From IMG/VR virus record IMGVR_UViG_3300024229_000001: a stretch of 64,000 nt of DNA. One strand, written 5' to 3'. The translations under genes were made by a program, and so were the position numbers. Source of the DNA: an uncultured virus (IMG/VR IMGVR_UViG_3300024229_000001) (lineage: Duplodnaviria; Heunggongvirae; Uroviricota; Caudoviricetes). This document shows, piece after piece, positions 23,702-55,035 of the stretch. The notes beneath the pieces are model-generated. The model was not told the DNA's origin and ran no database searches. It was given only the letters and a program-made list of their open reading frames with translations. Numbering within the stretch: the first letter of the stretch is position 1; the number at the start of each line of letters is the position of its first letter.

Positions 23702-24111
23702 TTATAGGATTTACATGTTCTACATTTGATCTGCTTCATGCGGGTCATATTGCTATGTTAAGAGAAGCAAAAGCTCAATGTGATTATCTTATTTGTGGTT
23801 TACAAGTTGATCCTAGTCGAGATCGTAAAGAAAAGAATCCACCAGTACAAAGTTTAGTTGAAAGGCATGTTCAACTTTCTGCTTTAAATTACGTTGATGA
23901 GATCATTCCGTATTGTACAGAAGCTGATTTACTTGATATAATAAACATGTATCCAATCAATGTTCGTATTCTAGGCGATGAATACAAAGACAAAGATTTT
24001 ACTGGAAAAGATGAATGCCGCAAGCGTGGTATTCAACTTTATTTTAATAAACGAGATCATAGGTTCTCATCCTCTGATCTAAGAAAGAGAGTATGTGATG
24101 CTGCTAAATAG
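23698..24111 (+). CDS. glycerol-3-phosphate cytidylyltransferase (TagD)-like
   Basis: FDLLHAGH HxGH motif, YVDEI, RFSSS. Confidence 0.85.
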   Translation: MIIGFTCSTFDLLHAGHIAMLREAKAQCDYLICGLQVDPSRDRKEKNPPVQSLVERHVQLSALNYVDEIIPYCTEADLLDIINMYPINVRILGDEYKDKDFTGKDECRKRGIQLYFNKRDHRFSSSDLRKRVCDAAK

Positions 24112-24796
24112 TGTAAAAGATATTCGTGAATTCTTTATTGGCGAACTAAACGATGAAGCATTTACTATTGACAAAACAGGACAACGCACCATTGAAATGC
24201 TTGGCGCTAATTTTTTAGCAACTGAGCCAGCGATCTTTGGTGAACCAGTTAAGTCTTATATTAATGCTGAGCTTGCTTGGTATGAAAGCGGTTCAACAAA
24301 CATTTACGATATTCATGGTGCTGATAAAGAACCACCTCAAGCATGGCGATATGCTGCTGATCAACATGGCAATATTAATTCTAACTATGGCCATTTAGTC
24401 TTTGCAGACAAGTATCACAATCAATTTTATAATGCTTTTGATGAACTATGGCATAATCCTGATAGTCGCCGCGCTCAAATGGTTTACAATCGTCCATCTA
24501 TCTGGGTTGAATTTGATGAAGGTGGTAAATCAGATTTCATCTGTACTAATGCGCAAACCTTCTATATCCGCGATGGCATTTTGCATATGGTGTCGCAGAT
24601 GCGCTCAAATGATGTTGTGTTTGGATATAAAAACGATTACGCTTGGGCTCAATACTTAATGGATAAGTTTGTTGCTCAATGGAATGAACAATGCAAACTT
24701 CCTGGCAATAAACACTTTACTATTGAAAAGGGTATGCTTACATGGCAGGTAATGAATTTGCACGTATACGAACGTCACTTTAATTTGGTGAAGTAA
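24098..24796 (+). CDS. dCMP hydroxymethylase-like (T4 gp42 family, thymidylate-synthase fold)
   Basis: INSNYG, DFICTN, MRSNDVVFGYKND, NLHVYERHF. Confidence 0.85.
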   Translation: MLLNSVKDIREFFIGELNDEAFTIDKTGQRTIEMLGANFLATEPAIFGEPVKSYINAELAWYESGSTNIYDIHGADKEPPQAWRYAADQHGNINSNYGHLVFADKYHNQFYNAFDELWHNPDSRRAQMVYNRPSIWVEFDEGGKSDFICTNAQTFYIRDGILHMVSQMRSNDVVFGYKNDYAWAQYLMDKFVAQWNEQCKLPGNKHFTIEKGMLTWQVMNLHVYERHFNLVK

Positions 24797-25032
24797 TGAA
24801 TAAATTAATATTAATTAGCGATATTATTGAGCAAAAAGTGCGTAAAGAAAAAGAGCTTCAATACTATCAAGAAGAACTTGAAAAGCTTAAGCAAAAAATG
24901 TGGTTCATTCAAAAAGATATCGATGTTACAAATATAATCATTAATATGATTGAAACAGAAAAAGTAGTAGATTTTAAAGATCAAATGGAAACCAAAATGT
25001 TAGGAGAAGACGATGCCAACTATGAGGGGTGA
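24796..25032 (+). CDS. hypothetical coiled-coil protein
   Basis: TAATG coupling to the preceding gene. Confidence 0.6.
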   Translation: MNKLILISDIIEQKVRKEKELQYYQEELEKLKQKMWFIQKDIDVTNIIINMIETEKVVDFKDQMETKMLGEDDANYEG

Positions 25033-25462
25033 ATGGAACAAACGCTATCTTGATCTTGCCCGTACTGTAAGTTCATGGTCAAAAGATCCATCAAAGAAAA
25101 TCGGTGCTATTGCTGTTGGTACTAAAGGTCAGGTTCTTGCTCAAGGATATAATGGGTTTCCACGCGGTATTAGTCATTCTAGTAAAAGACTAAAAGATCG
25201 CGATTTGAAGTATAAGTACGTAGTTCATGCTGAAATGAATTTGATATATAATGCATCGTACAATGGTGTATCCCTTGATGATTCTACAGTCTATGTTACT
25301 GGTCTACCGGTTTGTTCAGAATGTGCTAAAGGTCTTATTCAAGTTGGTGTTCGTCAAGTGATTATGCCAGTACAAAAAGATACACCAGAAAAATGGAAAG
25401 ATTCATTTGAATTTACTAAAGAATTATTTGAGGAGGCTGGGGTTGCCTGGCAGTTTATATGA
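25013..25462 (+). CDS. cd: dCMP deaminase
   Basis: SKDPS, GYNGFPRG, HAE, PVCSEC. Confidence 0.9.
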   Translation: MPTMRGEWNKRYLDLARTVSSWSKDPSKKIGAIAVGTKGQVLAQGYNGFPRGISHSSKRLKDRDLKYKYVVHAEMNLIYNASYNGVSLDDSTVYVTGLPVCSECAKGLIQVGVRQVIMPVQKDTPEKWKDSFEFTKELFEEAGVAWQFI

Positions 25463-26274
25463 TTGAGCATATTATTATTCCCACGCTAGGTCGTATGGAT
25501 AAACAAGTCACATACAATAATCTACCTAAGAAATATCAAGATAAAGTAACCTTTGTAGTTCAAGCTCATGAGTTTGAAGAAATGAGAGAAAGATATGGTT
25601 CAGCTGTTATTGGTCTCCCTGATAATATATCTAGAATCGCGCCTACGAGAGAGTGGATCTTTAACAACTACCGAGAGTGTCGTCATATGGTTTTTGATGA
25701 TGACCTCGATTTTGTTGTAAAAGAGCCAAATCCCGGTGAAGGTACTAAATGGCTATCACGTCGTTTTACAGAACAAGATTTTGATGACACATTTGGTCTA
25801 ATGAATCAATGGATGGATGAAGGTATTGTCTATGGTGGTTTACTTCCAGCTTGGGTAATTCCAGATGTACGTCAATGGCCAGTTCGTGAGTGTCAACGTA
25901 TTATGACAAACGTATTTTATGATGGGCCAAATGTTCCAGATGGAATTGAATGGAATCGAGTAGCAGCTGCTGAAGACTTTGATGTAAATCTTCAATTGCT
26001 TACAAAAGGTTTTAAAAATCGTATTAGTGCTAAATATATGGTAACATGTTCTGAAACAAATGCCGAAGGTGGTTGTTCTACATGGCGCACTCTTGAAGTA
26101 CATAATGATGCACAAAGAAAACTAGCAGAACTTTGGCCAGACTTTGTAAAGGTTCGCGAAAAAGAAGTTCCTAATGGACCTTGGAAAGGCCAAATAAAAT
26201 TAGCAACTACTATTCAACATAAGAAAGCTTATGAGTCCAGCCAACATCAATCGTTGGAGGATTTTTTCGGATGA
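25459..26274 (+). CDS. GT-A glycosyltransferase (hmC/TET-associated type)
   Basis: IIPTLGR, DDD, EDFD..LQLL.KG, GGC. Confidence 0.8.
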   Translation: MIEHIIIPTLGRMDKQVTYNNLPKKYQDKVTFVVQAHEFEEMRERYGSAVIGLPDNISRIAPTREWIFNNYRECRHMVFDDDLDFVVKEPNPGEGTKWLSRRFTEQDFDDTFGLMNQWMDEGIVYGGLLPAWVIPDVRQWPVRECQRIMTNVFYDGPNVPDGIEWNRVAAAEDFDVNLQLLTKGFKNRISAKYMVTCSETNAEGGCSTWRTLEVHNDAQRKLAELWPDFVKVREKEVPNGPWKGQIKLATTIQHKKAYESSQHQSLEDFFG

Positions 26275-34030: not shown

Positions 34031-34453
34031 ATGAATGAAGTTAATGTGATTGGTGGTAAGATTGATCGTAAAGAGCTGGCTCATAAGGTTATAGCTTGGT
34101 ATCTCAAGAAAGAGATGCCAAGGTTTAGAACACTAGATATTATGGTAAGGCTTACTAATTGTTATGAAAAAGGTGCATATGGTTATTGTATGGAACTCGA
34201 TGATAACCGCACATTTGAGCTAGAGATTGATAAGAACTTACGCCTATTTGATTTTGTATCTACAATTTGTCATGAAATGACTCACCTTAAGCAGTACGCT
34301 CGTAGTGAAATGAAGCAGCTTGATGATGGTAGAATACGTTGGAAGAAAAAGGTATATCCTTCCGGTTATGATTATGATAAGTCTCCTTGGGAAAAAGAAG
34401 CATTTAGAGTTGAAACAGAACTTGCTCTTATATGCTTCCATCAAGTTTTATAA
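34031..34453 (+). CDS. zincin-like metallopeptidase
   Basis: HEMTH..Q, PWEKEA. Confidence 0.75.
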   Translation: MNEVNVIGGKIDRKELAHKVIAWYLKKEMPRFRTLDIMVRLTNCYEKGAYGYCMELDDNRTFELEIDKNLRLFDFVSTICHEMTHLKQYARSEMKQLDDGRIRWKKKVYPSGYDYDKSPWEKEAFRVETELALICFHQVL

Positions 34454-34456
34454 ACT

Positions 34457-34464
34457 TATAAATA
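34457..34464 (+). promoter_or_regulatory. late promoter at the start of the putative internal-protein cluster
   Basis: TATAAATA. Confidence 0.7.
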
Positions 34465-34496: not shown

Positions 34497-35861
34497 ATGC
34501 TGAAGTTTAGATCTTTTTTATCTGAAGGAATGACGGCTCTCAGACCTGGAGAGCTTAGCAAGCCGAACAGTAAAACTAAAGAACCAAGAATTGATATTCT
34601 TAAGCATGCTGTAATTAATGGTATTACCTTGGCTTTGGCCAAAGATAACTCAGAAGTAAAGTTCGCAAATACCCCTGAAAATATTACAGCTGTAGATAAT
34701 TTTGATGGTAAAACCCCATTTGATTTAGTTACTGTTGATGGTCGAACTATTTCATCTTCAAAGATTGGTAAGTCAGCTATTTTTGGCGGTGGCGCAGGTG
34801 CTGGTGGTGGTACAGAAAATACTGCTCAGACTGAATCAGGTCAATGTTTATGGTTAGCAGCAATGCTTGAATATGGTAACCAACCAATTGAGTTCTTTAC
34901 TCCATCCATTCTTAAAAAAGCTATGAACCGTATTGATGTAGGTAAAACATCATTTGATGAAATGATTTCAATGGATTCAGCATGGCAAGTTTCAGCTTAC
35001 CTTTCAGCACAAAAAATTATTAAAGCTGGCTATGCAACTAAAAAGCATAAGCTCCATCGCGATTCTTCAGCAATGAATTACATCTATAAAAAAGCAAAGA
35101 AAGAAGCCTTTAAGAATTCTGGTATCTCTGCATTAACAGATGATAAATGGAATCCAGGCGATATCTGGGCTATTGAAGATGGTGTAGACCTAAAGAAAGA
35201 ACTAGATACTTCTTCAATTGGTGCACTTAATACTTCACTTCTACGTCTATTCAAAGAACGTAAAGTTGTAGGTATTTCCCTTAAGCTTGTAAAGAAAGAA
35301 GCTAAAGCAAAAGAATATAACGTTGAAGGTTCTCCACAGAATCATAAATTTGTATCTGGTGCTGTAAAAACTCAACGCGGAACGTTCTTCTCAAACAAAG
35401 GTGGCACTGTACAATTTAGCGGTGGCACTATGGAAATCAGGCCAAATAACTATCTTGGAGCAAATAAGATCGAAATTATGGGCAAAACAGCCCGCGGCGG
35501 CGGAGCTGGCTGGGGTGTTATTATGGCAGCTGGTAAAAGATATCTCAATGTCAATATTCCAGCGCATGGATCCATTAAACGTATAGCACAAAAATTAGCT
35601 TCTGGTAAAAATAAAAGATCCGAATTATACTTCTACAAAATGGCAAAAAATGCTGACCCATCTTTAACCTTTGACTATTACATGGAAGAGATTAGAAATA
35701 AAGATGCAGGTTGGTTCTCAGCTAAATTAGCTGCTGTAATGATTGTGCATTATTTAAATACCAATAAAGGCAGAAAGGCAGATTCATTTGTAAATGCAAT
35801 TGTGAATTATGCAGCATCGAGTTCTGATGATTCATCAGCATTCGTAAAAATTTACCAATAG
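34497..35861 (+). CDS. putative virion-packaged protein with a PD-(D/E)xK-like domain
   Basis: MLKFRSFLSE N-terminus; TES...WNPGDIW...GISLK. Confidence 0.55.
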   Translation: MLKFRSFLSEGMTALRPGELSKPNSKTKEPRIDILKHAVINGITLALAKDNSEVKFANTPENITAVDNFDGKTPFDLVTVDGRTISSSKIGKSAIFGGGAGAGGGTENTAQTESGQCLWLAAMLEYGNQPIEFFTPSILKKAMNRIDVGKTSFDEMISMDSAWQVSAYLSAQKIIKAGYATKKHKLHRDSSAMNYIYKKAKKEAFKNSGISALTDDKWNPGDIWAIEDGVDLKKELDTSSIGALNTSLLRLFKERKVVGISLKLVKKEAKAKEYNVEGSPQNHKFVSGAVKTQRGTFFSNKGGTVQFSGGTMEIRPNNYLGANKIEIMGKTARGGGAGWGVIMAAGKRYLNVNIPAHGSIKRIAQKLASGKNKRSELYFYKMAKNADPSLTFDYYMEEIRNKDAGWFSAKLAAVMIVHYLNTNKGRKADSFVNAIVNYAASSSDDSSAFVKIYQ

Positions 35862-35869
35862 GAAAAAAC

Positions 35870-37108
35870 ATGAAAAACTTTAAGTCTTACCTTTCTGAAC
35901 AAAAGAATACTCACATGACTCACATTGAAGATCAAGTGATTTATGGAGGTGTGAAAGGCGCAAGGGATGCTATTCTAGCTTTGCGTTCTCTTCGTGATAT
36001 GTTAGCGGGTAATGCCAAAGGTTCTACAGATGTTACTGTAAAATGGGATGGCGCACCTGCAGTTTTTGCAGGAGTTGATCCAGCCGATGGGCAATTCTTT
36101 GTAGCCAAAAAGGGCATTTTTAACAAGAATCCAAAGGTATATAAATCTCATGAAGACATCGAAGAAGATACAAGTGGAGACTTACAAACAAAACTCAAAA
36201 TCGCTTATGATGAGCTTAGTAAGCTTGGTATCCGAGGTGTCGTCCAAGGTGATATTATGTTTACTTCAAATGATCTTAAAACTGAGTCAATTGATGGTCA
36301 AAAGTTTCTTACTTTTCACCCTAACACCATTATGTATGCTATTCCCGTCGATTCCGACGAAGCTAAAAAAATTAAAAAAGCACGCATTGGAGTGGTCTTT
36401 CATACGTCGTACGATGGAGCTACTTTCGAGACTATGAAGGCATCATATGGTGTTGACGTTGATAAATTCAAAAGTGTATCTTCAGTATGGGCTGAAACCG
36501 CTACACTGCGTGACTTATCGGGCACAGCAACATTAACAAAAAAAGATACTGACGAAGTTACGAAAGCTCTCTCAGATGCTGGCAAGATTTTTCGTAAGAT
36601 CGCTGGTTCTACACTTCGTGATATTGAAAAGAATCCTGACTTTGCAAGTATAATTGAAACACATGGTAATAGATATGTAAGAAAAGGTGAAGCTGTAACA
36701 GATACTAAAAAGCATGTTGATACTCTTATTCAATTCATTAATGATAAGTTTGAAAAAGAAGCCGGTAAGCGTTCAACTGATAAGGGTAAACAAGCACAAT
36801 ATACTAAAAGAGATGAATTTCTAAAATTCTTTTCTGAAAAAAATAAAAAGAATTTAAAATTAGTGTTTGATTTACAGAAAGCTATTGTAGTTGCGAAGTT
36901 AATTATTATAAATAAACTTGATAGACTGAAGACAATAAATACTTTTGTTAAAACAAAATCTGGGTTTAAAGTAACCAGCCAAGAAGGCTTTGTTGCTATT
37001 GACCGTATTGGTGGCGGAGCAGTTAAAATTGTAGATAGATTAGAATTCTCCTACAACAACTTCTCCCCTGATATATTAAAAGGTTGGGACACTGCGTCTC
37101 GTTCTTAA
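35870..37108 (+). CDS. ligase-superfamily nucleotidyltransferase-like protein (DUF6267-like)
   Basis: MKNFKSYLSE N-terminus; KWDG, QGD, EGFV, VKIV. Confidence 0.6.
   Translation: MKNFKSYLSEQKNTHMTHIEDQVIYGGVKGARDAILALRSLRDMLAGNAKGSTDVTVKWDGAPAVFAGVDPADGQFFVAKKGIFNKNPKVYKSHEDIEEDTSGDLQTKLKIAYDELSKLGIRGVVQGDIMFTSNDLKTESIDGQKFLTFHPNTIMYAIPVDSDEAKKIKKARIGVVFHTSYDGATFETMKASYGVDVDKFKSVSSVWAETATLRDLSGTATLTKKDTDEVTKALSDAGKIFRKIAGSTLRDIEKNPDFASIIETHGNRYVRKGEAVTDTKKHVDTLIQFINDKFEKEAGKRSTDKGKQAQYTKRDEFLKFFSEKNKKNLKLVFDLQKAIVVAKLIIINKLDRLKTINTFVKTKSGFKVTSQEGFVAIDRIGGGAVKIVDRLEFSYNNFSPDILKGWDTASRS
36907..36914 (+). promoter_or_regulatory. internal late promoter
   Basis: TATAAATA. Confidence 0.5.
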
Positions 37109-37123
37109 TGGGAAAGAAGAATA

Positions 37124-37585
37124 ATGTATTCATTCAAAGACTTTTTAACTGTAGACTATACAGGCACTGGCGACGAACAGCTCGCCAAAAATGCTAAGAG
37201 ACGTAAGACAGACGATACATCTGGCGACTTAGCAGCTTCATATGACCCGAGTGTAGATGAAGCTCTTACCCAAGCTCAAAGACAAAAAATGAAAATGGCC
37301 ATGCGAAAGAATAAAGCCAAAATCGCATTGGGCCAGAAAAAAGCGCGTAAGAAATTAGCATCTCCAGAGAAGCTGAAGAAACGTGCTGAAAAAGCTGCTC
37401 GTAATATTCTCATTAAGAAAATTACAAAAGATAAAGATAAGGCTGATCTTTCTTATTCTGCAAGAGCAAGCATTGAAAAGCGCATTGAGAAAAAGGGTGC
37501 AACAATTAAAAAACTTGCAAAGAAATTACTCCCTAAAATTAAAAAAGCCGATCGTGAAAAACTAAAAGCGACTAAGGGAGAGTAA
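37124..37585 (+). CDS. very basic hypothetical protein
   Basis: MYSFKDFL N-terminus; Lys/Arg-rich helices after SVDE. Confidence 0.7.
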   Translation: MYSFKDFLTVDYTGTGDEQLAKNAKRRKTDDTSGDLAASYDPSVDEALTQAQRQKMKMAMRKNKAKIALGQKKARKKLASPEKLKKRAEKAARNILIKKITKDKDKADLSYSARASIEKRIEKKGATIKKLAKKLLPKIKKADREKLKATKGE

Positions 37586-37587
37586 CT

Positions 37588-38925
37588 TTGAAGTCCTTTA
37601 ACGAATATCTTACCGAAGAGACTAAAGAGGTAGTATTTACCTTTGGCAGATTTAATCCGCCAACCGTTGGTCATGAAAAGTTAATTTCTAAAGTTGCCTC
37701 TCTAGCAAAGGGAAACAACTATCGCGTGTATGCGTCTAAATCTCAAGATGCTAAAAAGAATCCATTAGACTTTAATACAAAAGTTAAGACCATGCGGAAG
37801 ATGTTTCCTAAGCATGGTAGAAATATTATGTCTGATAAAGATGTTCGTAATGCATTAGACATTTTGGTAAAGCTATACGATCAAGGGTTTACCAAAGTTA
37901 CTATGGTTGTTGGTTCAGATCGAGTTAATGAATTCTCTGCACTAACAAATAAGTATAACGGCGTTAAATCTCGTCATGGTATGTACAACTTTGAAGATGG
38001 TATTAATGTTGTATCAGCTGGTGAAAGAGATCCTGATGCAGATGATGTATCGGGTATGTCAGCTTCTAAGATGAGAGCTGCAGCTGCAGATAATGACTAT
38101 CCTACATTCTCAAAAGGTCTTCCATCTAGTTTCAAAGGTGGTAAAGATCTATTCGATAGTTTACGTAAAGCAATGGGTATCAAAGAAGCTGCTGAATATA
38201 AGAATCATGTTCAATTAGCACCGGTTTCTGATCTACGTGAAGCATATATCAAGCAACGTATTTTTGAAGAAGGTGAACAAGTAGTAATTACTGCAAAAGG
38301 TATTGTTGGTACTATTACTAAACTTGGTGCTAATTACTTAGTTGTAGAATCAAAAGGTGAAACTTGGAGATGCTGGTTAGATCAAGTATCTAAGGTAGAT
38401 CCTAATGAAGAATCAATCCTTGCATTAGCTTCAGAAGTACAGCCAGCAGAACACTCCCTTGAAGAAGCAAGAGAGCAGCCAAAAGATAAAGACTCTGGTA
38501 TGAAAAAATCATATGCCTCAGGTCTATCAAAATCAACAAATGCTAAACGTGCAGCTCAATTCAAAAAGCAAGCTAAAATGGATGACGATAATCCAGCTGC
38601 TTATAAGCCAGCTCCCGGCGATGCTACAGCAAAAACAAAAACTTCTAAGCACACCAAAAAGTTTAAAGACATGTACGGTGAAATGAAAGAATTAGAAGAA
38701 TCAAATGTTAAGGCTGCTTTACAGAAAAAGGCTGATAAAACTGGTATGCCATATGGAATACTTAAGAAAGTATTTGATAGAGGCGTAGCAGCTTGGAGAA
38801 CAGGACACCGTCCGGGTACTAACCCAACACAATGGGGACTTGCAAGAGTTAACTCATTCGCAACGAAATCATCAGGAACATGGGGCGGTGCTGATAAAGA
38901 CCTTGCCGCTAAAGTAAGAGGGTAA
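37588..38925 (+). CDS. HxGH-type nucleotidyltransferase (cytidyltransferase-like) fused to further modules (TTG start)
   Basis: FGRFNPPTVGH, VGSDR, MSASKMR; C-terminal RG.AAW..GHRPG..QW.LARVNSF. Confidence 0.8.
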   Translation: MKSFNEYLTEETKEVVFTFGRFNPPTVGHEKLISKVASLAKGNNYRVYASKSQDAKKNPLDFNTKVKTMRKMFPKHGRNIMSDKDVRNALDILVKLYDQGFTKVTMVVGSDRVNEFSALTNKYNGVKSRHGMYNFEDGINVVSAGERDPDADDVSGMSASKMRAAAADNDYPTFSKGLPSSFKGGKDLFDSLRKAMGIKEAAEYKNHVQLAPVSDLREAYIKQRIFEEGEQVVITAKGIVGTITKLGANYLVVESKGETWRCWLDQVSKVDPNEESILALASEVQPAEHSLEEAREQPKDKDSGMKKSYASGLSKSTNAKRAAQFKKQAKMDDDNPAAYKPAPGDATAKTKTSKHTKKFKDMYGEMKELEESNVKAALQKKADKTGMPYGILKKVFDRGVAAWRTGHRPGTNPTQWGLARVNSFATKSSGTWGGADKDLAAKVRG

Positions 38926-38926
38926 C

Positions 38927-40471
38927 ATGAAAACTTTAAGAGACATTAGAGAAGCATTAGAAGTCGGCACCGACGAAATTGTTGCTGCTTATAAAAAAGC
39001 AACTCCAGGCGAAGTGAAAGAAGAAGATATGCCAGCTTCTCCTGATGAAGCAGGTATGGCAATGGATCAAGCTAAGTTTATTGGCTATGTCGCAGATGAG
39101 ATTATGGAATACATTCAAGGAAACAATGAATTTCCTGAGTGGATGCAAAATAAGCTTTCAGCCCTCCATGAAAAAGCTAAAGGTGTGCACGCCGTAATGG
39201 CAGGCAAATACAATGAATCAGTTCAAGAAGAATTGGTTGACGAAGCAAGCAAAGGCATTGAAGCAATGAAAAAAGCAGGCAATGCAAAAGCAGATGCAGA
39301 GGCAAAGGAACGGGCTAAAAAAGATCGTGCTGGTAAACCACGTCCAAGTCCATCATTTAAATCCATCAAAAGAAAACAATATGGAAATATGATGGGTAAA
39401 CTAAAAGAAGAAGATCTTCAGGAACTAGATGCACAAACCCAAAAGAAATTTTCTATGGGTGCAAAAAATATGAAAGCATATGCTCAAAAGAATGGTGGCG
39501 TAGATAAAAAAGACTTTATGGATGTTGCTAAACTTCTAGATCAAATTGCTCGTGTAAACCTATTACAAGCTGGTCAACTTCTTTCCCGCCTAAATCGTTT
39601 GGTTGATGGTATGGATACCGATGTCCGCGAACGTATTTACGTTGAGCTAAAAAAGGTTGGTCTTGTAGAATCAGTTGAAGAATCCTTTAAGCCTCATATG
39701 ATGTATGATCCAGAAACTGGTAAAGCCTATAAAGCTGATAAAGAAGAAGATCATCTTCGCATGAAAAAAATGGGTTATACCCATGAAAAACCAGATATGG
39801 ATGAAGCTAAGCAAAAGAATTGGATGGTAACTGTTACTAAACCAATCAATAAGCTTAAAAAGGGAATGAAAGTAGTTGTTCCAGCTCGTAACACTGCTGA
39901 AGCTATGAAAAAAGCTTTGAAGAGAATGGGTGAAAATCCTGCTGCAATTGGTTCTGGTCACCTTGATGTTCAGCTTGATAAGTCCCTTGGCGAATCTGTT
40001 CAGATTGATGAAGCTAAATTTACGCCTAAAGAAATTAAAATGGCTATTGGAATTGCATCTGATCCACGATATAAAGGTGGTAATATGACGGGTGCGGCTA
40101 AAGCAATTAATAAAATCAAAAAAGGTCTATCAGATTATCCACAAGTTGCAGCAGTCTTAAAAAGACAAAATGAATCAGTAGATCTTGAAGAAAAGCTCCA
40201 AGTTTCCGATGGCATGGCAAAATGGATTGAAGATTTCCAAAAGTCTGATGCTCCACAGTTTGTAGAAAAAGATAAGAATGAACGCCGTGAAATGGCTATT
40301 GCGGCTTATCTTGCAGCAAAGCGCAAAAATAAAGATATTGAAGAAGCTAAAAAAACCAAAAAAGTTTCTGGTAAGAAATTAACTCCTGATCAAATTCGTA
40401 AAGCTTTAGGATCAGTTAAAGCTAAAGGTAAAGAAACAGTATCTCTTAAGAAAGCACCGTGGGACAAGTAA
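38927..40471 (+). CDS. modular hypothetical protein (putative protease-processed polyprotein)
   Basis: About 9-10 short modules separated by acidic ES/xxE linkers. Confidence 0.7.
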   Translation: MKTLRDIREALEVGTDEIVAAYKKATPGEVKEEDMPASPDEAGMAMDQAKFIGYVADEIMEYIQGNNEFPEWMQNKLSALHEKAKGVHAVMAGKYNESVQEELVDEASKGIEAMKKAGNAKADAEAKERAKKDRAGKPRPSPSFKSIKRKQYGNMMGKLKEEDLQELDAQTQKKFSMGAKNMKAYAQKNGGVDKKDFMDVAKLLDQIARVNLLQAGQLLSRLNRLVDGMDTDVRERIYVELKKVGLVESVEESFKPHMMYDPETGKAYKADKEEDHLRMKKMGYTHEKPDMDEAKQKNWMVTVTKPINKLKKGMKVVVPARNTAEAMKKALKRMGENPAAIGSGHLDVQLDKSLGESVQIDEAKFTPKEIKMAIGIASDPRYKGGNMTGAAKAINKIKKGLSDYPQVAAVLKRQNESVDLEEKLQVSDGMAKWIEDFQKSDAPQFVEKDKNERREMAIAAYLAAKRKNKDIEEAKKTKKVSGKKLTPDQIRKALGSVKAKGKETVSLKKAPWDK

Positions 40472-40701
40472 TGTTAACCTTTCAAGAATATTTACAAGAA
40501 GGTTCTGAATCTTGGGAAAAAGGTTTTGAACGTCGTGTTGTAAAGACCACTAAACCTGAGCATAAAGAAAAAGGTTACAAATGGAGAATCAAAGGAAAAG
40601 ATCGTCCTGAGATTTCTATTAAGTTGTATAAAACAAAACCTGATTTTGCAGAATTTAAAAAACAAATGCGCAGGGTCGCAGGACATGAGTTTGGCGGATG
40701 A
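40471..40701 (+). CDS. small basic protein with CTS-like N-terminus
   Basis: MLTFQEYLQE; TAATG coupling. Confidence 0.7.
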   Translation: MLTFQEYLQEGSESWEKGFERRVVKTTKPEHKEKGYKWRIKGKDRPEISIKLYKTKPDFAEFKKQMRRVAGHEFGG

Positions 40702-41246
40702 TTAGTTTCAAAGAACATAACACCAATCCTTTAGTGAATCTAGAATATCATTCTAATAATGGTATTCCTTTGAATGAAAACTTATTTAGAGTAGGTTCAC
40801 AGGCTTATTATGAACTTTTTCAAGAGGCCCGTCGTCTTATGAAAGAGGGTGTCTATACACCAGAAGGTGTTGATAAGTTCTTATTAGAAGAAACTGATAT
40901 TGGCGAATATGGTTTATATGAAGGTCAATTTGTCCCTATTGATTGTCCTTTAATGGAAGCAGAATATAAAGGTAAAGAAGTAGAACTTAACGAACCTAAA
41001 AGAGGCGGCGATAAAAAGTTCTATGTTTACGTAAAAAATGATAAAGGCAATGTGATTAAGATCCAGTTTGGAGATACCACAGGCCTGAAAGCAAAAATTA
41101 ATGATCCAGAGGCAAGAAAGAGCTTTGCTGCTCGCCATCAATGCGATCAGAAAAAAGATAAGACTAAGGCCGGATATTGGTCCTGTCGTCTTCCATATTA
41201 TGCTAAACAACTTGGTCTTTCGGGAGGAGGCAACTTCTTTTGGTAA
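40698..41246 (+). CDS. conserved hypothetical protein (DUF6321-like C-terminus)
   Basis: KKFYVYVK...FGD...ARKSFAARHQC...YWSC. Confidence 0.7.
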   Translation: MISFKEHNTNPLVNLEYHSNNGIPLNENLFRVGSQAYYELFQEARRLMKEGVYTPEGVDKFLLEETDIGEYGLYEGQFVPIDCPLMEAEYKGKEVELNEPKRGGDKKFYVYVKNDKGNVIKIQFGDTTGLKAKINDPEARKSFAARHQCDQKKDKTKAGYWSCRLPYYAKQLGLSGGGNFFW

Positions 41247-41500
41247 GACCATATCAGGATAATGATAGTGTTCGAATATTTAACTCCAATGTAGATAGTT
41301 CTGAGTTAGTTTGGCACCGTGATAGAGAAGATCGAACTGTTACAGTTTTAGAAGGAAATGGGTGGTCATTCCAATATGACGATTCATTACCATTTGAGTT
41401 GAAACATGGAGATCAATTTTTTATAGAGAAGATGACCTATCACAGGTTGCTAAAAGGTAATAATCAGCTTAGGGTTCTAATAGAGAAACACTATGGATAA
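41240..41500 (+). CDS. small cupin-like protein
   Basis: ELVWHRDREDR...YHRLLKG. Confidence 0.65.
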   Translation: MVRPYQDNDSVRIFNSNVDSSELVWHRDREDRTVTVLEGNGWSFQYDDSLPFELKHGDQFFIEKMTYHRLLKGNNQLRVLIEKHYG

Positions 41501-41798
41501 AAACTTAGAAGAACATATCATGCGAGACGAGAGACGCTTAGATCGCATTGAAGAAAAAATCGACCGCTTATCTGAAACAGTTATCTCTTTAGCGCGGGCT
41601 GAAGAAAAGCTTGTTAATCTAGAAGAAGATCGTAAGATTATCAATGACCGTTTGAACTCACATTCAGATCGTATTGATAGAGTAGAAACAAAAATCGACG
41701 AAACGACCATTACAGTAAGAGTAATTAATAGAATCTTCTGGATTGGTATAACTGTAACTGCGGCTGCTTGGGCTGGCCAATTATTTATGAACATGTAA
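41493..41798 (+). CDS. coiled-coil protein with C-terminal TM segment
   Basis: RLDRIEEKIDRL heptads, hydrophobic C-terminus. Confidence 0.7.
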   Translation: MDKNLEEHIMRDERRLDRIEEKIDRLSETVISLARAEEKLVNLEEDRKIINDRLNSHSDRIDRVETKIDETTITVRVINRIFWIGITVTAAAWAGQLFMNM

Positions 41799-41807
41799 GG
41801 AAAAGCA

Positions 41808-42236
41808 ATGGACACTATCAATAAAACATTAGCTCAAGCGTACTTAGATATGTATGAGACAAAAACAAAAACCGAAAGAAAAAGCTGGGTGCCAGAAGCA
41901 ATTGCTGATGAAGACGTAGCTGACTTTATGGGTGCTGCAGCAGCTGCCGCAAAAGCCGGTAAAAAAGAATTTAAATTTGGTGATAAGACATACAAAGTCA
42001 CCATGAAAAAATCAACTGTAGATGCAATTAACGATGAAGCTGAAGAAGCTTGCCCAGATTGTGGTAAAGTTCATGAAGGTTCATGCATGAAAGAATCACC
42101 TGAAGAGCCAAGAGCAAAAGGCGAAAAAGAATTCAAAAAGATGCATGATGACAATACTGAAATCACCGATGAAAAAGATGGTGAAGATGAAACATTTGAC
42201 AATATCAAAAAGTCAGCCGATTCAATCAAAAAATAA
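41808..42236 (+). CDS. hypothetical protein with a small CxxC..H..C module
   Basis: CPDCGKVHEGSC. Confidence 0.65.
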   Translation: MDTINKTLAQAYLDMYETKTKTERKSWVPEAIADEDVADFMGAAAAAAKAGKKEFKFGDKTYKVTMKKSTVDAINDEAEEACPDCGKVHEGSCMKESPEEPRAKGEKEFKKMHDDNTEITDEKDGEDETFDNIKKSADSIKK

Positions 42237-42246
42237 GGTATGACTA

Positions 42247-43080
42247 ATGGCTCAATATTCTGCACATAGACAGGAGTGGTTTGGATCAGTAACTAATAGC
42301 AACATTTTTGAAGTTGTTATGATCGCTGATAAAGACGGTAACATTATTAATTCTTCAGGAATTAGTTCTAACATCTATATTTCTGCAGGATTAGTTGACG
42401 GTTGGGCCAATGTGCATAAGTTTGGTGCTGTGCCATCTATGTCTCAAAATACCTCTGGTAGTATTTGGGATGTAGATGATACATATTATCCTTGGGATGC
42501 TTTTGATACTCCATCAGCTCTAACTATTAGTACCACAGCTTTTAACGGCAACGCATCATCTTTAGATGATGGTATTACGGTTCATGTTTTAGGCTTAAAT
42601 GAAAACTTTGAAGAAGTAGAAGATACCTTTACTATTTCTGGTAATTCTGCTACAGGCACTGTAGTTTTCAAAAGAGTTTATAGAGCATATATTGATGGAT
42701 CGGCAGCAAATCAAACACAAATTAGAGTATCAAATACCACAGCTGAAGTATTAAGAATCAACATTGGTAAATCACAAACACTTATGGCTATTTACACAGT
42801 CCCTGCAGGTAAAACTGGCTATTTGCTTCAAGGGACATCTACTTGTGCAGCAAATGCTGATGCTACAATAGATATGTTTGTGAGATACTTTGAACAAGAT
42901 TCGTTTAGAATTGGACATACTGCAGAAGTTGCTGGTGTTGGAGGCCAATATACATATCAATTTGGTGTTCCAATTAAAATTCCAGAAAAATCTGATTTAG
43001 ATATTAGAGCTGAAGTTAGATCAAATAATGCTAGAGTAACTGCTGCGTTTGATCTAGTATTAGTTGACAATGAAATATAG
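42247..43080 (+). CDS. putative structural beta-rich protein
   Basis: VHKFG, YTVPAGKTGY, PEKSDL; Gly/Thr/Ser-rich. Confidence 0.55.
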   Translation: MAQYSAHRQEWFGSVTNSNIFEVVMIADKDGNIINSSGISSNIYISAGLVDGWANVHKFGAVPSMSQNTSGSIWDVDDTYYPWDAFDTPSALTISTTAFNGNASSLDDGITVHVLGLNENFEEVEDTFTISGNSATGTVVFKRVYRAYIDGSAANQTQIRVSNTTAEVLRINIGKSQTLMAIYTVPAGKTGYLLQGTSTCAANADATIDMFVRYFEQDSFRIGHTAEVAGVGGQYTYQFGVPIKIPEKSDLDIRAEVRSNNARVTAAFDLVLVDNEI

Positions 43081-43090
43081 GAGATAAATT

Positions 43091-43507
43091 ATGGCTGTTC
43101 CCGGATGGTTAAAAGACGCAATTGCAACACCTCGTGGTTTTATTAGTAAGAAGGGTGAACTATTAAAAGCCCAGCGTATGACTGCACAGCAATGCGATGA
43201 ATTTAATAATCGTAAAAAAGAAGAACCAAAGACTATCAAATTGGATCTATCCACAGTAATTCCAACTGTGGTCTCTGAACCAGAAATTGAAGTAGTTGAA
43301 GATGAAATGACAGACACTCATTCAAATATTGAGATTACTGTTACTGGTGCAGATGAAGATGGTGATGGTGTTATATCTGAAGATGAATTAAAAAAGCTCA
43401 CAAAAGCAAAGTTAGAAAATATTGCTCGTGATTATGGCATTGAATTAGATCGTCGTAAAACAAAAAAAGCATTATTAGAAGAACTACTTGAGAAAATTGC
43501 TGAATAA
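43091..43507 (+). CDS. protein with EF-hand-like loop and C-terminal HeH/Rho_N-like domain
   Basis: DEDGDGVISEDE; LTKAKLENIARDYGIELDRRKTK. Confidence 0.6.
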   Translation: MAVPGWLKDAIATPRGFISKKGELLKAQRMTAQQCDEFNNRKKEEPKTIKLDLSTVIPTVVSEPEIEVVEDEMTDTHSNIEITVTGADEDGDGVISEDELKKLTKAKLENIARDYGIELDRRKTKKALLEELLEKIAE

Positions 43508-43542
43508 ATAGATATAACATAATCTATTTTATTGAGGCATTA

Positions 43543-43911
43543 ATGAAAATTTTTGAGCGATTGAATGAAGAGAACTTTCTCTTATACGCAGCAAATAATT
43601 ATAAGAATCCAAACTGCACAGACGCAGAAGAATTTTATGACGATTTGAATCGGTTTAAGTATATCAAAAGACTACTTGGTAGATATTATAATGACGATGA
43701 TTTGCAAGAAAGATTAATACTAAATCATGTTGTAATTTTAGCAAATGTTTTTGGAATTGAAGCAGCAGTAAAAATGTTGTGGTATAAAGTAAATAAAGAG
43801 CATTGGCCGGTAATTAAACCAATGCTAATCTATTTAAATTATATTACAGAAAAAGAAAAAATGGATGTTCCTTTAGATCCATTAATAATAGAAAGACTTA
43901 GGAAAATTTAA
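43543..43911 (+). CDS. conserved T4-like hypothetical protein
   Basis: Y.NP.C...EEF..DL.RFKYIKRL, ERLILNH. Confidence 0.75.
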   Translation: MKIFERLNEENFLLYAANNYKNPNCTDAEEFYDDLNRFKYIKRLLGRYYNDDDLQERLILNHVVILANVFGIEAAVKMLWYKVNKEHWPVIKPMLIYLNYITEKEKMDVPLDPLIIERLRKI

Positions 43912-44495
43912 TGGGTGTAGTCTCTAGAACAGCTGACTTATTTTATGCTTATAGATTTATTAAGCTACTCGTCACGCCTTGGGAAAAAACAGAAGCTTTT
44001 GAATTAGGCATCATTGACGATGACGGTAAAGTCGTTAAAAAGACTAGTCAATTGAAAACTTCTGAAGAAAAATCTGCATATACAGTTTTTCATCGTCTCG
44101 TATTTAATATTAAAAGATTGTTAAGTAAACTTCCGTTTGGTAAAACCAAATTGGCTTCTTGGGCAACGGCATTATTCTTAATTAAAGAAGAAACTGGTAT
44201 GACCGAAGAAGAGATTGTAAATGTTTTAAAGAAAATGGATATTGATTTCGATGATACTTTATTCGAATCAACATGGCATATGATCGGTGAACAATTACAA
44301 CCAGGAGTTTATAAGCTAGCTCATGATACTGTTTCACCAATCACGGGTGAACCTATTGCTTTGAAAGGTACTAAAATTAAAGTATTTGAGGATACACTTC
44401 CTGAAGGACACATGCTTGGTACACCAATATACAGAGTACTACATCTAAAAACTAAGCAAGACATTTTAGTAAATCCCGGAGAAATTATCCGATGA
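43911..44495 (+). CDS. conserved T4-like hypothetical protein
   Basis: YRFIKLLVTPW...AF.LGIID, FHRLVFNIKR. Confidence 0.75.
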   Translation: MGVVSRTADLFYAYRFIKLLVTPWEKTEAFELGIIDDDGKVVKKTSQLKTSEEKSAYTVFHRLVFNIKRLLSKLPFGKTKLASWATALFLIKEETGMTEEEIVNVLKKMDIDFDDTLFESTWHMIGEQLQPGVYKLAHDTVSPITGEPIALKGTKIKVFEDTLPEGHMLGTPIYRVLHLKTKQDILVNPGEIIR

Positions 44496-44689
44496 AATCT
44501 TTCAAAGAAATTAGAGAGACAGCTGCAAATGCAGTAGCCGGTGGAGGTGTTGACCTTACTCCATCAGCAGATCAGATTCTATTCAAAAAACGCGATAAGC
44601 GTAGAAAAGAAGATACTGATTCTATGTTTAGACGATCTCAAGGTTTATCGTTTATTAACGCTATGTTGGAGCGTAAAAACAAAAAATAG
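44492..44689 (+). CDS. small protein with CTS-like N-terminus
   Basis: MKSFKEIRE. Confidence 0.65.
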   Translation: MKSFKEIRETAANAVAGGGVDLTPSADQILFKKRDKRRKEDTDSMFRRSQGLSFINAMLERKNKK

Positions 44690-54288: not shown

Positions 54289-54421
54289 AGCCCATCAACA
54301 AATCGACATATGTTGTGAAACATTATGTGAGAAAGAAGTTGTTCAGCAATATATACTAGAGTTAGAAGATCTAGTTAAAGAACTGCAAGAAAAAATCAAT
54401 CAACTCGAGGATTATAAATGA
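54260..54421 (+). CDS. hypothetical protein
   Basis: GGAG RBS; Cys cluster plus coiled coil. Confidence 0.45.
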   Translation: MRREKCLAIRAHQQIDICCETLCEKEVVQQYILELEDLVKELQEKINQLEDYK

Positions 54422-55035
54422 GTGAAGATCTTATGGAACTACTTACTGGCGGCGAAAAGAAACGAAATTATTTTCACCATCGCCCAGTAGCAAATATCCA
54501 TGAATTTTATTTAGTTGGCGAGATTAAACGCGCTGATGAATATATTGATTGGTTTGACATCATCCGCAATGCAGGAAAGAATGATGTAGTTAATATTCAT
54601 ATTAACTCATATGGTGGTGACTTATTCACTGCCATTCAAATGATACGAGTTCTCGGCGAGTGTGAAGGAACTGTAGTTTGTTCTGTTGAAGGTGCTTGTA
54701 TGTCTGCAGCAACAATGGTATTCTTATGTGCTGATGGTTTTGAAGTATCAGGGCACTCAATGTTTATGTTTCATAACTATTCAGGTGGAACCATTGGTAA
54801 AGGTGGTGAAATGTATGATAACATTGTACACGAACGTAAATGGTCTGAAAAGCTACTTCGTGAAATCTATAATAACTTTTTGACTGAAGATGAAATCGTT
54901 TCAGTATTAAACAATAAAGATATTTGGATGGATGGCGATGAAGTTATCAAGCGCCTAGAATCTATGAAAGAAAAAGTCAACGAAGACAAAGAAAAGCCTA
55001 AGCCTGCTCCACGTCGACGGAAGAAAGCTTCTTAA
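54418..55035 (+). CDS. ClpP-like serine protease
   Basis: INSYGG, CMSAAT (Ser), MFH (His). Confidence 0.85.
   Translation: MSEDLMELLTGGEKKRNYFHHRPVANIHEFYLVGEIKRADEYIDWFDIIRNAGKNDVVNIHINSYGGDLFTAIQMIRVLGECEGTVVCSVEGACMSAATMVFLCADGFEVSGHSMFMFHNYSGGTIGKGGEMYDNIVHERKWSEKLLREIYNNFLTEDEIVSVLNNKDIWMDGDEVIKRLESMKEKVNEDKEKPKPAPRRRKKAS

Follow-up and report, generated by a model that had tools for sequence, protein, structure and literature searches.

The stretch of DNA considered here, referred to in its entirety as the window, is a 64,000-nucleotide record of an uncultured virus (IMG/VR IMGVR_UViG_3300024229_000001) and is part of a T4-like marine myophage. On its + strand, positions 38927-40471 form a single open frame, opposite which the other strand is dense with stop codons, and this open reading frame (ORF) encodes a protein of 514 amino acids (aa) that is made up of small, interchangeable modules behind a short N-terminal leader. 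The protein may act as a precursor of several capsid-internal cargoes. The window also harbors genes for UvsW, gp55, gp46/47, the clamp, the clamp loader, the gp43 polymerase and UvsX, together with a DnaB-like helicase, NrdA/B, PhoH and an endolysin, and among named phages it is closest to Methylophilales phage Melnitz and the Kyanoviridae cyanomyophages. An identical copy of the 514-aa protein is found among its relatives (P0002), and the protein itself has no match in Pfam, even at E<=1, and none in PHROGs.

Modules and their shuffling

An earlier note on this DNA described the protein as a chain of mini-domains separated by recurring acidic linkers, and every linker that it quoted is found in the translation. 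Only its first site, given as ALE, is better read as I-R-E9/A (here and below, a slash marks the position after the glutamate of such a site). All nine junctions of the protein fit a hydrophobic-x-Glu (h-x-E) motif: IRE9/A, VKE32/E, VDE106/A, LQE166/L, VEE252/S, MDE293/A, IDE362/A, LEE422/K and IEE473/A. The protein was cut at its linkers into a segment N and modules A to H, the borders thus being set on this protein's own linkers, and each module was searched with jackhmmer in 249 fetched relatives, to which the counts below refer.

38927..40471, + strand: whole ORF, putative multi-cargo precursor, 514 aa, 57 kDa, pI 9.3
38927..38953, + strand: leader, residues 1-9, MKTLRDIRE, ends I-x-E/A; resembles a capsid targeting sequence (CTS)
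38954..39022, + strand: module N, residues 10-32, ALEVGTDEIVAAYKKATPGEVKE, ends V-K-E32; in 64 relatives
39023..39244, + strand: module A, residues 33-106, pI 4.3, ends NESVQEELVDE106/A; helical hairpin (predicted helices 39-66 and 71-92); in 159 relatives, at varied positions
39245..39424, + strand: module B, residues 107-166, Lys/Arg-rich, pI 10.0, ends LKEEDLQE166/L; in 87 relatives
39425..39682, + strand: module C, residues 167-252, pI 9.0, ends LVESVEE252/S; four-helix bundle; in 137 relatives
39683..39805, + strand: module D, residues 253-293, FKPHMMYDP...GYTHEKP, ends DMDE293/A; beta hairpin and helix; in 35 relatives; also carried by Melnitz gene 20
39806..40012, + strand: module E, residues 294-362, pI 9.9, ends GESVQIDE362/A; small beta-alpha domain; in 52 relatives
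40013..40192, + strand: module F, residues 363-422, FTPKEIKMAIGIASDPRYKGGN..., pI 9.6, ends NESVDLEE422/K; three helices; in 145 relatives, often first, directly behind the leader; also carried by Melnitz gene 21
40193..40345, + strand: module G, residues 423-473, KLQVSDGM.KWIEDFQKSDAPQF...REMAIAAYL, ends DIEE473/A; in 166 relatives
40346..40468, + strand: module H, residues 474-514, Lys-rich tail, pI 10.5; in 52 relatives

The description of the modules as mostly basic needs tempering, as the predicted fragments comprise five with a basic pI (9.0-10.5) and four whose pI (4.3-6.5) is acidic to near neutral. In the relatives that carry it, module N is nearly always found directly behind the leader, of which it may be an extension.

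The predicted structure agrees with the idea that the modules are self-contained. AlphaFold2, with 53 aligned relatives, predicts separate small domains joined by low-confidence linkers, not one folding unit, with a mean predicted local distance difference test (pLDDT) of 66 and a predicted template modelling score (pTM) of 0.29. The confident units span residues 167-250 (four helices, pLDDT ~93, module C), 297-350 (beta-alpha, 81-88, module E), 363-417 and 430-478. The stretches with pLDDT below 50 (26-39, 93-107, 133-164, 255-258, 283-293, 355-362, 418-426, 478-484 and 495-514) coincide with linkers, except for 495-514, which is the C-terminal tail. Modules B and H are modelled with low confidence, the former with pLDDT <50 over 133-164. 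Modules E and F modelled alone again give two domains with a disordered joint. On these predictions the protein would resemble beads on a string, with linkers that are disordered and exposed.

Fold searches provide no meaningful match for the modules. Foldseek with the whole model against the PDB gives nothing at E<=0.001, and the BFVD match, to one modular DUF5824 protein (E 7e-4, TM ~0.1), was set aside. Also set aside were the VIA-align matches of the whole model, including module C, which are generic helical bundles only (Z up to 7.6), and the ESM Atlas matches of module C, which are unnamed viral clusters with scores <=0.81. For modules E and F the best fold match has a Z of 5.5, and AcrIE2 (Z 4.8) and T7 Gp2 (Z 4.3) tie with ribosomal proteins and are not relied on. 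Pfam yields scattered sub-threshold matches only over the 53 relatives, and nothing useful on the modules from the neighboring genes and 12 other proteins.

Module G has pairwise matches in a 1006-aa protein of P-TIM68 and in the DUF6321 region of an Sf-CH8 protein, which is encoded between terS and terL. The latter match, obtained by tblastn, covers residues 420-504 of the 514-aa protein (40% identity, E 5e-4), and the matched stretch of the Sf-CH8 protein is Pfam DUF6321 (PF19846). Membership of the 514-aa protein in DUF6321 is rejected, as PF19846 has no match to it even at E<=1 and would span one of the nine modules. In a 795-aa member of the family, P0158, a Zeta_toxin-type P-loop kinase domain (E 1e-7) lies at the N-terminus ahead of modules F, C, H and D, which shows, as judged from its sequence, that enzymatic domains can join the module string.

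The family is large. Of 7994 candidates scored in a word-indexed search, 2265 (282-900 aa long) are relatives at E<=0.001, and an exhaustive phmmer search over 1.84 billion representatives identifies 2713 at the same threshold, including 926 at E<=1e-10 and 91 at E<=1e-30. Among the 150 phmmer matches listed, lengths range from 104 to 795 aa and the boundaries of the best matches cluster at the linkers (~28-31 to 96-106, 160-172 to 251-253, 291 to 357, 353-364 to 417-424 and 420 to 469), and the place of the matching stretch in the targets ranges from the first residues to past residue 500.

Each of the nine modules is present in 35 to 166 of the 249 relatives, and they are found in roughly 200 different orders. 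The relatives are therefore not collinear, and the expectation that the linkers are the points at which modules enter, drop out and change order is borne out. Only 11 architectures are common to more than one protein, each being found in 2-9 proteins (50 in total), and the remainder are unique. The order N-A-B-C-D-E-F-G-H belongs to the 514-aa protein alone; relatives have architectures such as B-C-G-H-F, F-A-E-..-G-C, G-F-A, N-..-G-C-F-A and C-A, and short ones such as P0184, P0208 and P0217 consist of the leader and one or two modules. Within the 514-aa gene, the linker codons include 11-15 nucleotides (nt) of near-identical DNA at 39212-39229, 39668-39682, 39797-39811, 40004-40018, 40169-40192 and 40333-40345. 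These repeats, which form families of 2-3 copies, may be recombination joints or may have arisen by chance.

The leader and the junction motif

The CTS of T4 is a tag that is ~10-19 residues long, has hydrophobic residues around positions 4 and 7 and ends in L/I-x-E (PMC9026906). The N-terminus of the 514-aa protein, MKTLRDIRE/A (L4, I7, E9), has the length, the hydrophobic spacing and the I-x-E/A ending of this tag and is similar to the start of T4 IPII and IPIII, MKTYQEFIAE/A, and to that of IPI, MKTFKEF... (MKTFKEFTSTTTPVSTITE/A in the T4 record). This likeness was judged by pattern and not by scored alignment. Relatives start in the same manner, with MSKSFFNIRE/A, MKSFKQIRE/A, MKTFFDLRE/A or MDFFKLRE/N, and 136 of the 247 relatives that begin with Met match the leader pattern, in comparison with 6.5% of internal Met positions. 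What follows the leader is variable: module N in 56 cases, B in 27, A in 14, F in 8, D in 4, G and C in one each and another sequence in 25. A leader conserved ahead of at least seven different first modules represents a conserved tag with variable cargo, as in the T-even internal proteins, in which the tag is conserved and the cargo diverse and otherwise unrelated (PMC3012670). By blastp no similarity is found to the mature part of T4 IPI, IPII or IPIII (best E 1.8), which is a weak criterion because the internal proteins of the T4 family are mutually unrelated apart from the tag.

The junctions between modules carry a motif as well. Contexts were counted from module occurrences whose profile match starts at the module start, with identical contexts collapsed and those with <12 upstream residues dropped. 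In the 290 unique module-upstream contexts thus obtained from the 249 relatives, [LIVMF]-x-E is found in the 8-residue boundary window in 258. As background, 15.9% of 20,000 windows drawn at random from these proteins have the motif, and shuffling the residues within each boundary window leaves it in only ~112 of the contexts. The junction logo reads L/V/I at P3, D/E/N at P2, E at P1 and A/K/G at P1', and the motif is kept whichever modules flank the junction. It is specific for glutamate, and aspartate is not interchangeable with it, since h-x-E outnumbers h-x-D by 284 to 5 even though the 815 acidic residues of these windows include 157 Asp. An extended linker motif, E-[S/E]-[V/L/I/Y], is found at 116 of the 290 junctions only and so is not general. 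The T4 prohead protease gp21 cleaves behind L/I-x-E, and the T4 IPIII tag is no longer processed if its P1 residue is Asp (PMC9026906). The linkers thus conform to the gp21-type hydrophobic-x-Glu rule that the earlier note had invoked.

Neighboring genes, head machinery and virion proteomes

Leaders of the same kind are also found on the genes around the 514-aa ORF, which follow a candidate late promoter. These features are as follows.

34457..34464, + strand: TATAAATA, late-promoter motif, 33 nt upstream of the first leader-bearing gene, in a 43-nt intergenic gap
34497..35861, + strand: 454-aa protein, phrog_1462, leader MLKFRSFLSE/G
35870..37108, + strand: DUF6267 protein, leader MKNFKSYLSE/Q
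37588..38925, + strand: cytidylyltransferase/NMNAT-like protein with DUF5824, TTG start, leader.KSFNEYLTE/E
40471..40701, + strand: 76-aa ORF whose ATG overlaps the stop codon of the 514-aa ORF, leader MLTFQEYLQE/G
44492..44689, + strand: 65-aa ORF, leader MKSFKEIRE/T; the same ORF is found in related loci L011 and L013-L015

The strict leader pattern occurs in 7 of the 79 genes in the window, all within 34497-44689, in comparison with 0.72% of internal positions. One of the seven, a DUF7207 gene at 43543, may be a chance match, and weaker look-alikes are found at 37124 and 40698. The leader of the 76-aa ORF is very close to the T4 IPII/IPIII tag; this ORF has a homolog in 25 of 59 related loci, where homologs starting M..F..F.EGSESW recur. 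Melnitz has a matching run of leader-bearing genes (15, 16, 17, 18, 20, 21 and 22). In 59 related viral contigs a family member accompanies a cytidylyltransferase homolog in 54 and DUF6267 in 43. A loose form of the leader pattern matches 137 of 853 crude ORFs in these loci, some of them evidently spurious (a coiled-coil ORF and the DUF7207 family), and can be used qualitatively: in that sense many of the loci have leader-bearing neighbors. Across the related loci, ~2.1-6.1 kb separate the start of the cytidylyltransferase from the conserved gene that comes next, which makes the place of the 514-aa gene a variable slot, roughly 0.8-4.8 kb long.

From 34497 to 41500 the genes are separated by gaps of <=16 nt or overlap. 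The sequence TATAAATA upstream of them is the T4 late-promoter motif; in the whole window it is found 13 times against 8.3 expected, which is no significant enrichment. Four of its 12 + strand copies, at 34457, 14532, 51448 and 56353, lie in short intergenic gaps, as expected for T4-type late promoters. A gp55-like late sigma factor is encoded at 1753-2337 (identified on an identical ORF in the related record G001). Sigma-70 promoter-like sites in the window number 37 against 39.7 expected from shuffles, and terminator-like sites are little above shuffles, at 10 against 6.9. Just upstream of the late motif, at 34031-34453, a 140-aa ORF has weak sub-threshold Pfam matches to DUF3810 and DUF6782 (putative metallopeptidases). 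In cyanophages a second slot is found between terS and terL (Sf-CH8 L002 2206-5006; S-SZBM1 L008 26034-30641). It contains a DUF6321/mosaic protein, a small leader-bearing ORF (MKSYKQFMSE/S) and a 'virion structural protein', and the 87-aa S-SZBM1_195 from this slot ranks third by exponentially modified protein abundance index (emPAI) in the S-SZBM1 virion proteome.

The head genes of the lineage are seen in G001, the nearest record, which has 38% of sampled words in common with the window and whose right end overlaps the left end of the window. Before the genes that open the window, G001 encodes a portal, two small core-like ORFs, a Peptidase_S77 protease, a gp22-like acidic scaffold and gp23. 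The protease (E 5e-45) is 45% identical to T4 gp21 over the core, so that the lineage probably has a gp21-type protease. The gp23 maturation site of T4, L-T-E65/A, lies roughly opposite M-V-N-E/T in G001, in a part of the local alignment that is gapped. Within the window, a 138-aa ORF at 43091-43507 has an EF-hand-like loop and, among PHROGs, weakly matches phrog_8608 ('prohead protease inhibitor', E 1e-6), and a second phage protease, ClpP-like (phrog_1827, E 3e-66), is encoded at 54418-55035, distant from the head genes.

Virion proteomes of related cyanophages speak for the packaging of homologs of neighboring genes and of proteins at the equivalent genomic place, and of these only. The papers on S-SZBM1 (PMC9146016), S-CREM2 (PMC10665884) and S-SCSM1 (PMC9602691) report leader-bearing cytidylyltransferase/NMNAT homologs in CsCl-purified virions. 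In each of these phages the product of the gene directly after the cytidylyltransferase was detected too, as were products of other cluster genes in S-CREM2 and S-SCSM1. S-SZBM1 virions contain the cytidylyltransferase, gene 140 (MRFRQFIIE/A), and the next gene, 139, and genes 141 and 142, which have no leader, are absent from the virion list (PMC9146016 Table 1). S-CREM2 virions contain the cytidylyltransferase gp154 (MKNFSSFLTE/A) along with gp155, gp156 and gp160 (PMC10665884). In the GenBank record of S-SCSM1 genes 89, 90, 91, 92 and 93 are marked as virion proteins, gene 91 being the NMNAT (MKSFLQFLKE/A) and gene 92, of 520 aa, following it directly; the S-SCSM1 paper (PMC9602691) describes NMNAT-like proteins as frequent in cyanophage virions. 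The supplements of the S-CREM2 and S-SCSM1 papers contain neither peptide-level nor per-ORF virion data. S-CREM2 gp160 and the P-TIM68 1006-aa protein have two modules in common, in reversed order (E 1e-22 and 5e-13), and the P-TIM68 protein in turn has module G in common with the 514-aa protein (E 6e-11). SSZBM1_139 and SSCSM1_92 have weaker links to the same network of mosaic modules.

A candidate multi-cargo precursor and its alternatives

The T4 internal proteins are the textbook case of proteins that are injected with phage DNA. We give an even chance to the proposal that the product of the 514-aa gene is a precursor from which several capsid-internal cargoes are released, so that the gene would represent a marine form of the T4 internal-protein system. 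The gene would be transcribed late, together with its neighbors, from a T4-type late promoter, and the 9-residue leader, possibly extended by module N, would bind the prohead scaffolding core as the T4 CTS does. Once activated, the gp21-type prohead protease would remove the leader at I-R-E9/A and cut the exposed, disordered linkers after the Glu of the hydrophobic-x-Glu sites, which would release about nine pieces, 2.4-10 kDa in size. Those that are basic would stay with the DNA and be injected along with it. Because one leader per string suffices, recombination at the linkers could insert, remove and rearrange modules.

Targeting, cleavage, injection and the effector role of the modules are what we infer, and the proposal is placed no higher because its two decisive steps, packaging and cutting, are among these. 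A number of observations weigh against it. The leader pattern is absent in 111 of the 247 relatives, many of which carry a longer variant, MTRYS.TM...L..IRE/G, directly ahead of module F. The junction motif is short, and the 514-aa protein has 19 h-x-E sites of which ~10 lie within modules; E9 and E473 fall in predicted helices; and related sequences are not independent, so that binomial P values overstate significance. The T4 internal proteins are basic, whereas four of the fragments predicted here have an acidic to near-neutral pI. The protease is seen in G001, outside the window itself, and this 39%-complete fragment has no copy of the 514-aa gene. From the virions, SSCSM1_92, SSZBM1_139 and S-CREM2 gp155, gp156 and gp160 have no BLAST match at E<=1e-4 to the 249 family proteins, with marginal ones at E<=1, and these positional equivalents connect to the family only via modules of other mosaic proteins. 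SSZBM1_139 and SSCSM1_92 lack a canonical leader, so that detection in virions needs no leader, and the accessible account of S-SCSM2R, with 23 virion proteins, does not list the cytidylyltransferase.

Three other explanations have to be considered. The first, which we regard as unlikely, is that the protein is not packaged but acts as a cytoplasmic multi-domain hub or host-takeover factor, its N-terminal motif serving some other end, for instance partner binding or efficient translation, and the motif of the linkers being a structural cap. The A/T-rich codons of the leader would fit such a role, as would the lack of a match for any module in the family, fold and function searches and the lack of over-representation of TATAAATA across the window. 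The gene is also situated among replication and nucleotide-metabolism genes, outside the head module, but the ip genes of T4 are likewise found outside the head module. Moreover, the N-terminal pattern fits an experimentally defined tag in its length, hydrophobic spacing and ending, is confined to one gene cluster, and is also found on neighbors whose homologs are present in purified virions of three cyanophages.

It is similarly improbable, in our view, that the protein is packaged in one piece, with only the leader removed, as in T4 IPIII, and the acidic linkers acting as spacers. The leader evidence is equal for this explanation and for a multi-cargo precursor, and T4 IPIII and Alt lose terminal propeptides only (PMC9026906). 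In addition, the published cyanophage proteomes give the positional equivalents as entire genes, and the peptides are spread across 10-15% of the chain. The junctions are what separates the two. Spacers need neither a hydrophobic residue at P3 nor Glu over Asp at P1 (284 to 5), nor a fixed order of residues within the window (258 contexts against ~112 after shuffling), and the linkers are predicted to be disordered, which would expose them to a protease that has few other determinants.

The remaining explanation, that the protein is a disposable core or scaffold accessory that assembles together with the scaffold, is chopped up to leave the head before DNA entry and delivers no cargo, recalls the multi-site h-x-E cleavage of T4 core proteins into small peptides (PMC9026906) and would suit the acidic fragments, but is highly improbable given that the modules are conserved, confidently predicted domains that persist through extreme shuffling, that copy number, length (288-795 aa) and composition vary widely among close relatives, which is unexpected of a size-determining scaffold, and that the locus is a variable slot.

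As a multi-cargo precursor, the 514-aa protein would extend known mechanisms, namely the T4 CTS, gp21 processing and the multi-site processing of giant phages. With T4 IPI, IPII, IPIII and Alt it has in common a short N-terminal tag with hydrophobic residues near 4 and 7 and an I/L-x-E/A ending. As with the T4 internal proteins, it is encoded outside the head module of a T4-type phage, one that to judge from G001 probably has gp21, gp22 and gp23, its cargo is diverse behind a conserved tag, and several of its predicted fragments are small and basic. It differs in that T4 has one tag per cargo, whereas here one tag precedes about nine modules with further protease-type sites; in addition, some modules are acidic, there is no similarity to the mature T4 proteins, and packaging and processing are putative. 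In T4, gp21 breaks gp22, gp67 and gp68 down to small peptides by cleavage at many L/I-x-E sites (PMC9026906), but they are essential scaffold components that are mostly expelled, whereas the 514-aa protein consists of conserved folded domains encoded by a highly variable gene. In the giant phages phiKZ, 201phi2-1 and SPN3US many head-internal proteins are cut after Glu by a diverged gp21 homolog (PMC9026906, PMC7411985, PMC10052503), and 29 processing sites in 19 proteins are mapped for 201phi2-1 (PMC9026906). Such multi-site processing after Glu at short motifs is similar to that proposed here, but these phages are of another lineage with another P3 preference, and the accessible accounts of them describe no shuffled mini-domain array behind a T4-type tag.

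A further parallel is found in the polyvalent proteins of phages and conjugative elements (Iyer, Aravind and co-workers, 2017), which are said to be strings of swappable, unrelated domains that are thought to enter the recipient with DNA and are sometimes cut by a protease. They are reportedly much larger, with recognizable enzymatic domains and often a peptidase of their own; in the Foldseek search the only likeness to them is one non-significant row (E 0.02). A literature search returned no account of the T4 internal-protein idea in marine T4-like phages, nor of shuffled mini-domain arrays behind one tag or of their marine spread. At 24095-26274 the window also has two genes that suggest a modified cytosine DNA: one is thymidylate-synthase-like (phrog_160) and the other is homologous to beta-glucosyl-HMC alpha-glucosyltransferase (phrog_842, E 2e-45). 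In T4, which has modified-cytosine DNA, the injected IPI* protects against modification-dependent restriction.

More speculative, and in our estimation possible though doubtful, is the notion that the family is a combinatorial library of injected mini-effectors, each 4-10 kDa module being an anti-defense or host-takeover protein. Taken as a whole, this tentative scheme would have one tag load the string and the head protease free the pieces, with the linker serving both as protease site and as DNA recombination joint.

If the 514-aa protein is indeed a multi-cargo precursor, a single tag can load a string of cargoes, and this would suggest a ready-made way of packing several cargoes into T4-type capsids. 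The tag would also offer a mechanism for the repeated and unexplained occurrence of NMNAT-like enzymes in cyanophage virions (PMC9602691). The unannotated family, with its 2713 representative clusters, would become a catalogue of candidate injected factors. Marine T4-like phages are among the most abundant viruses of the sea, and if the modules are mini-effectors, then these abundant ocean phages could reassort their injected arsenal module by module.

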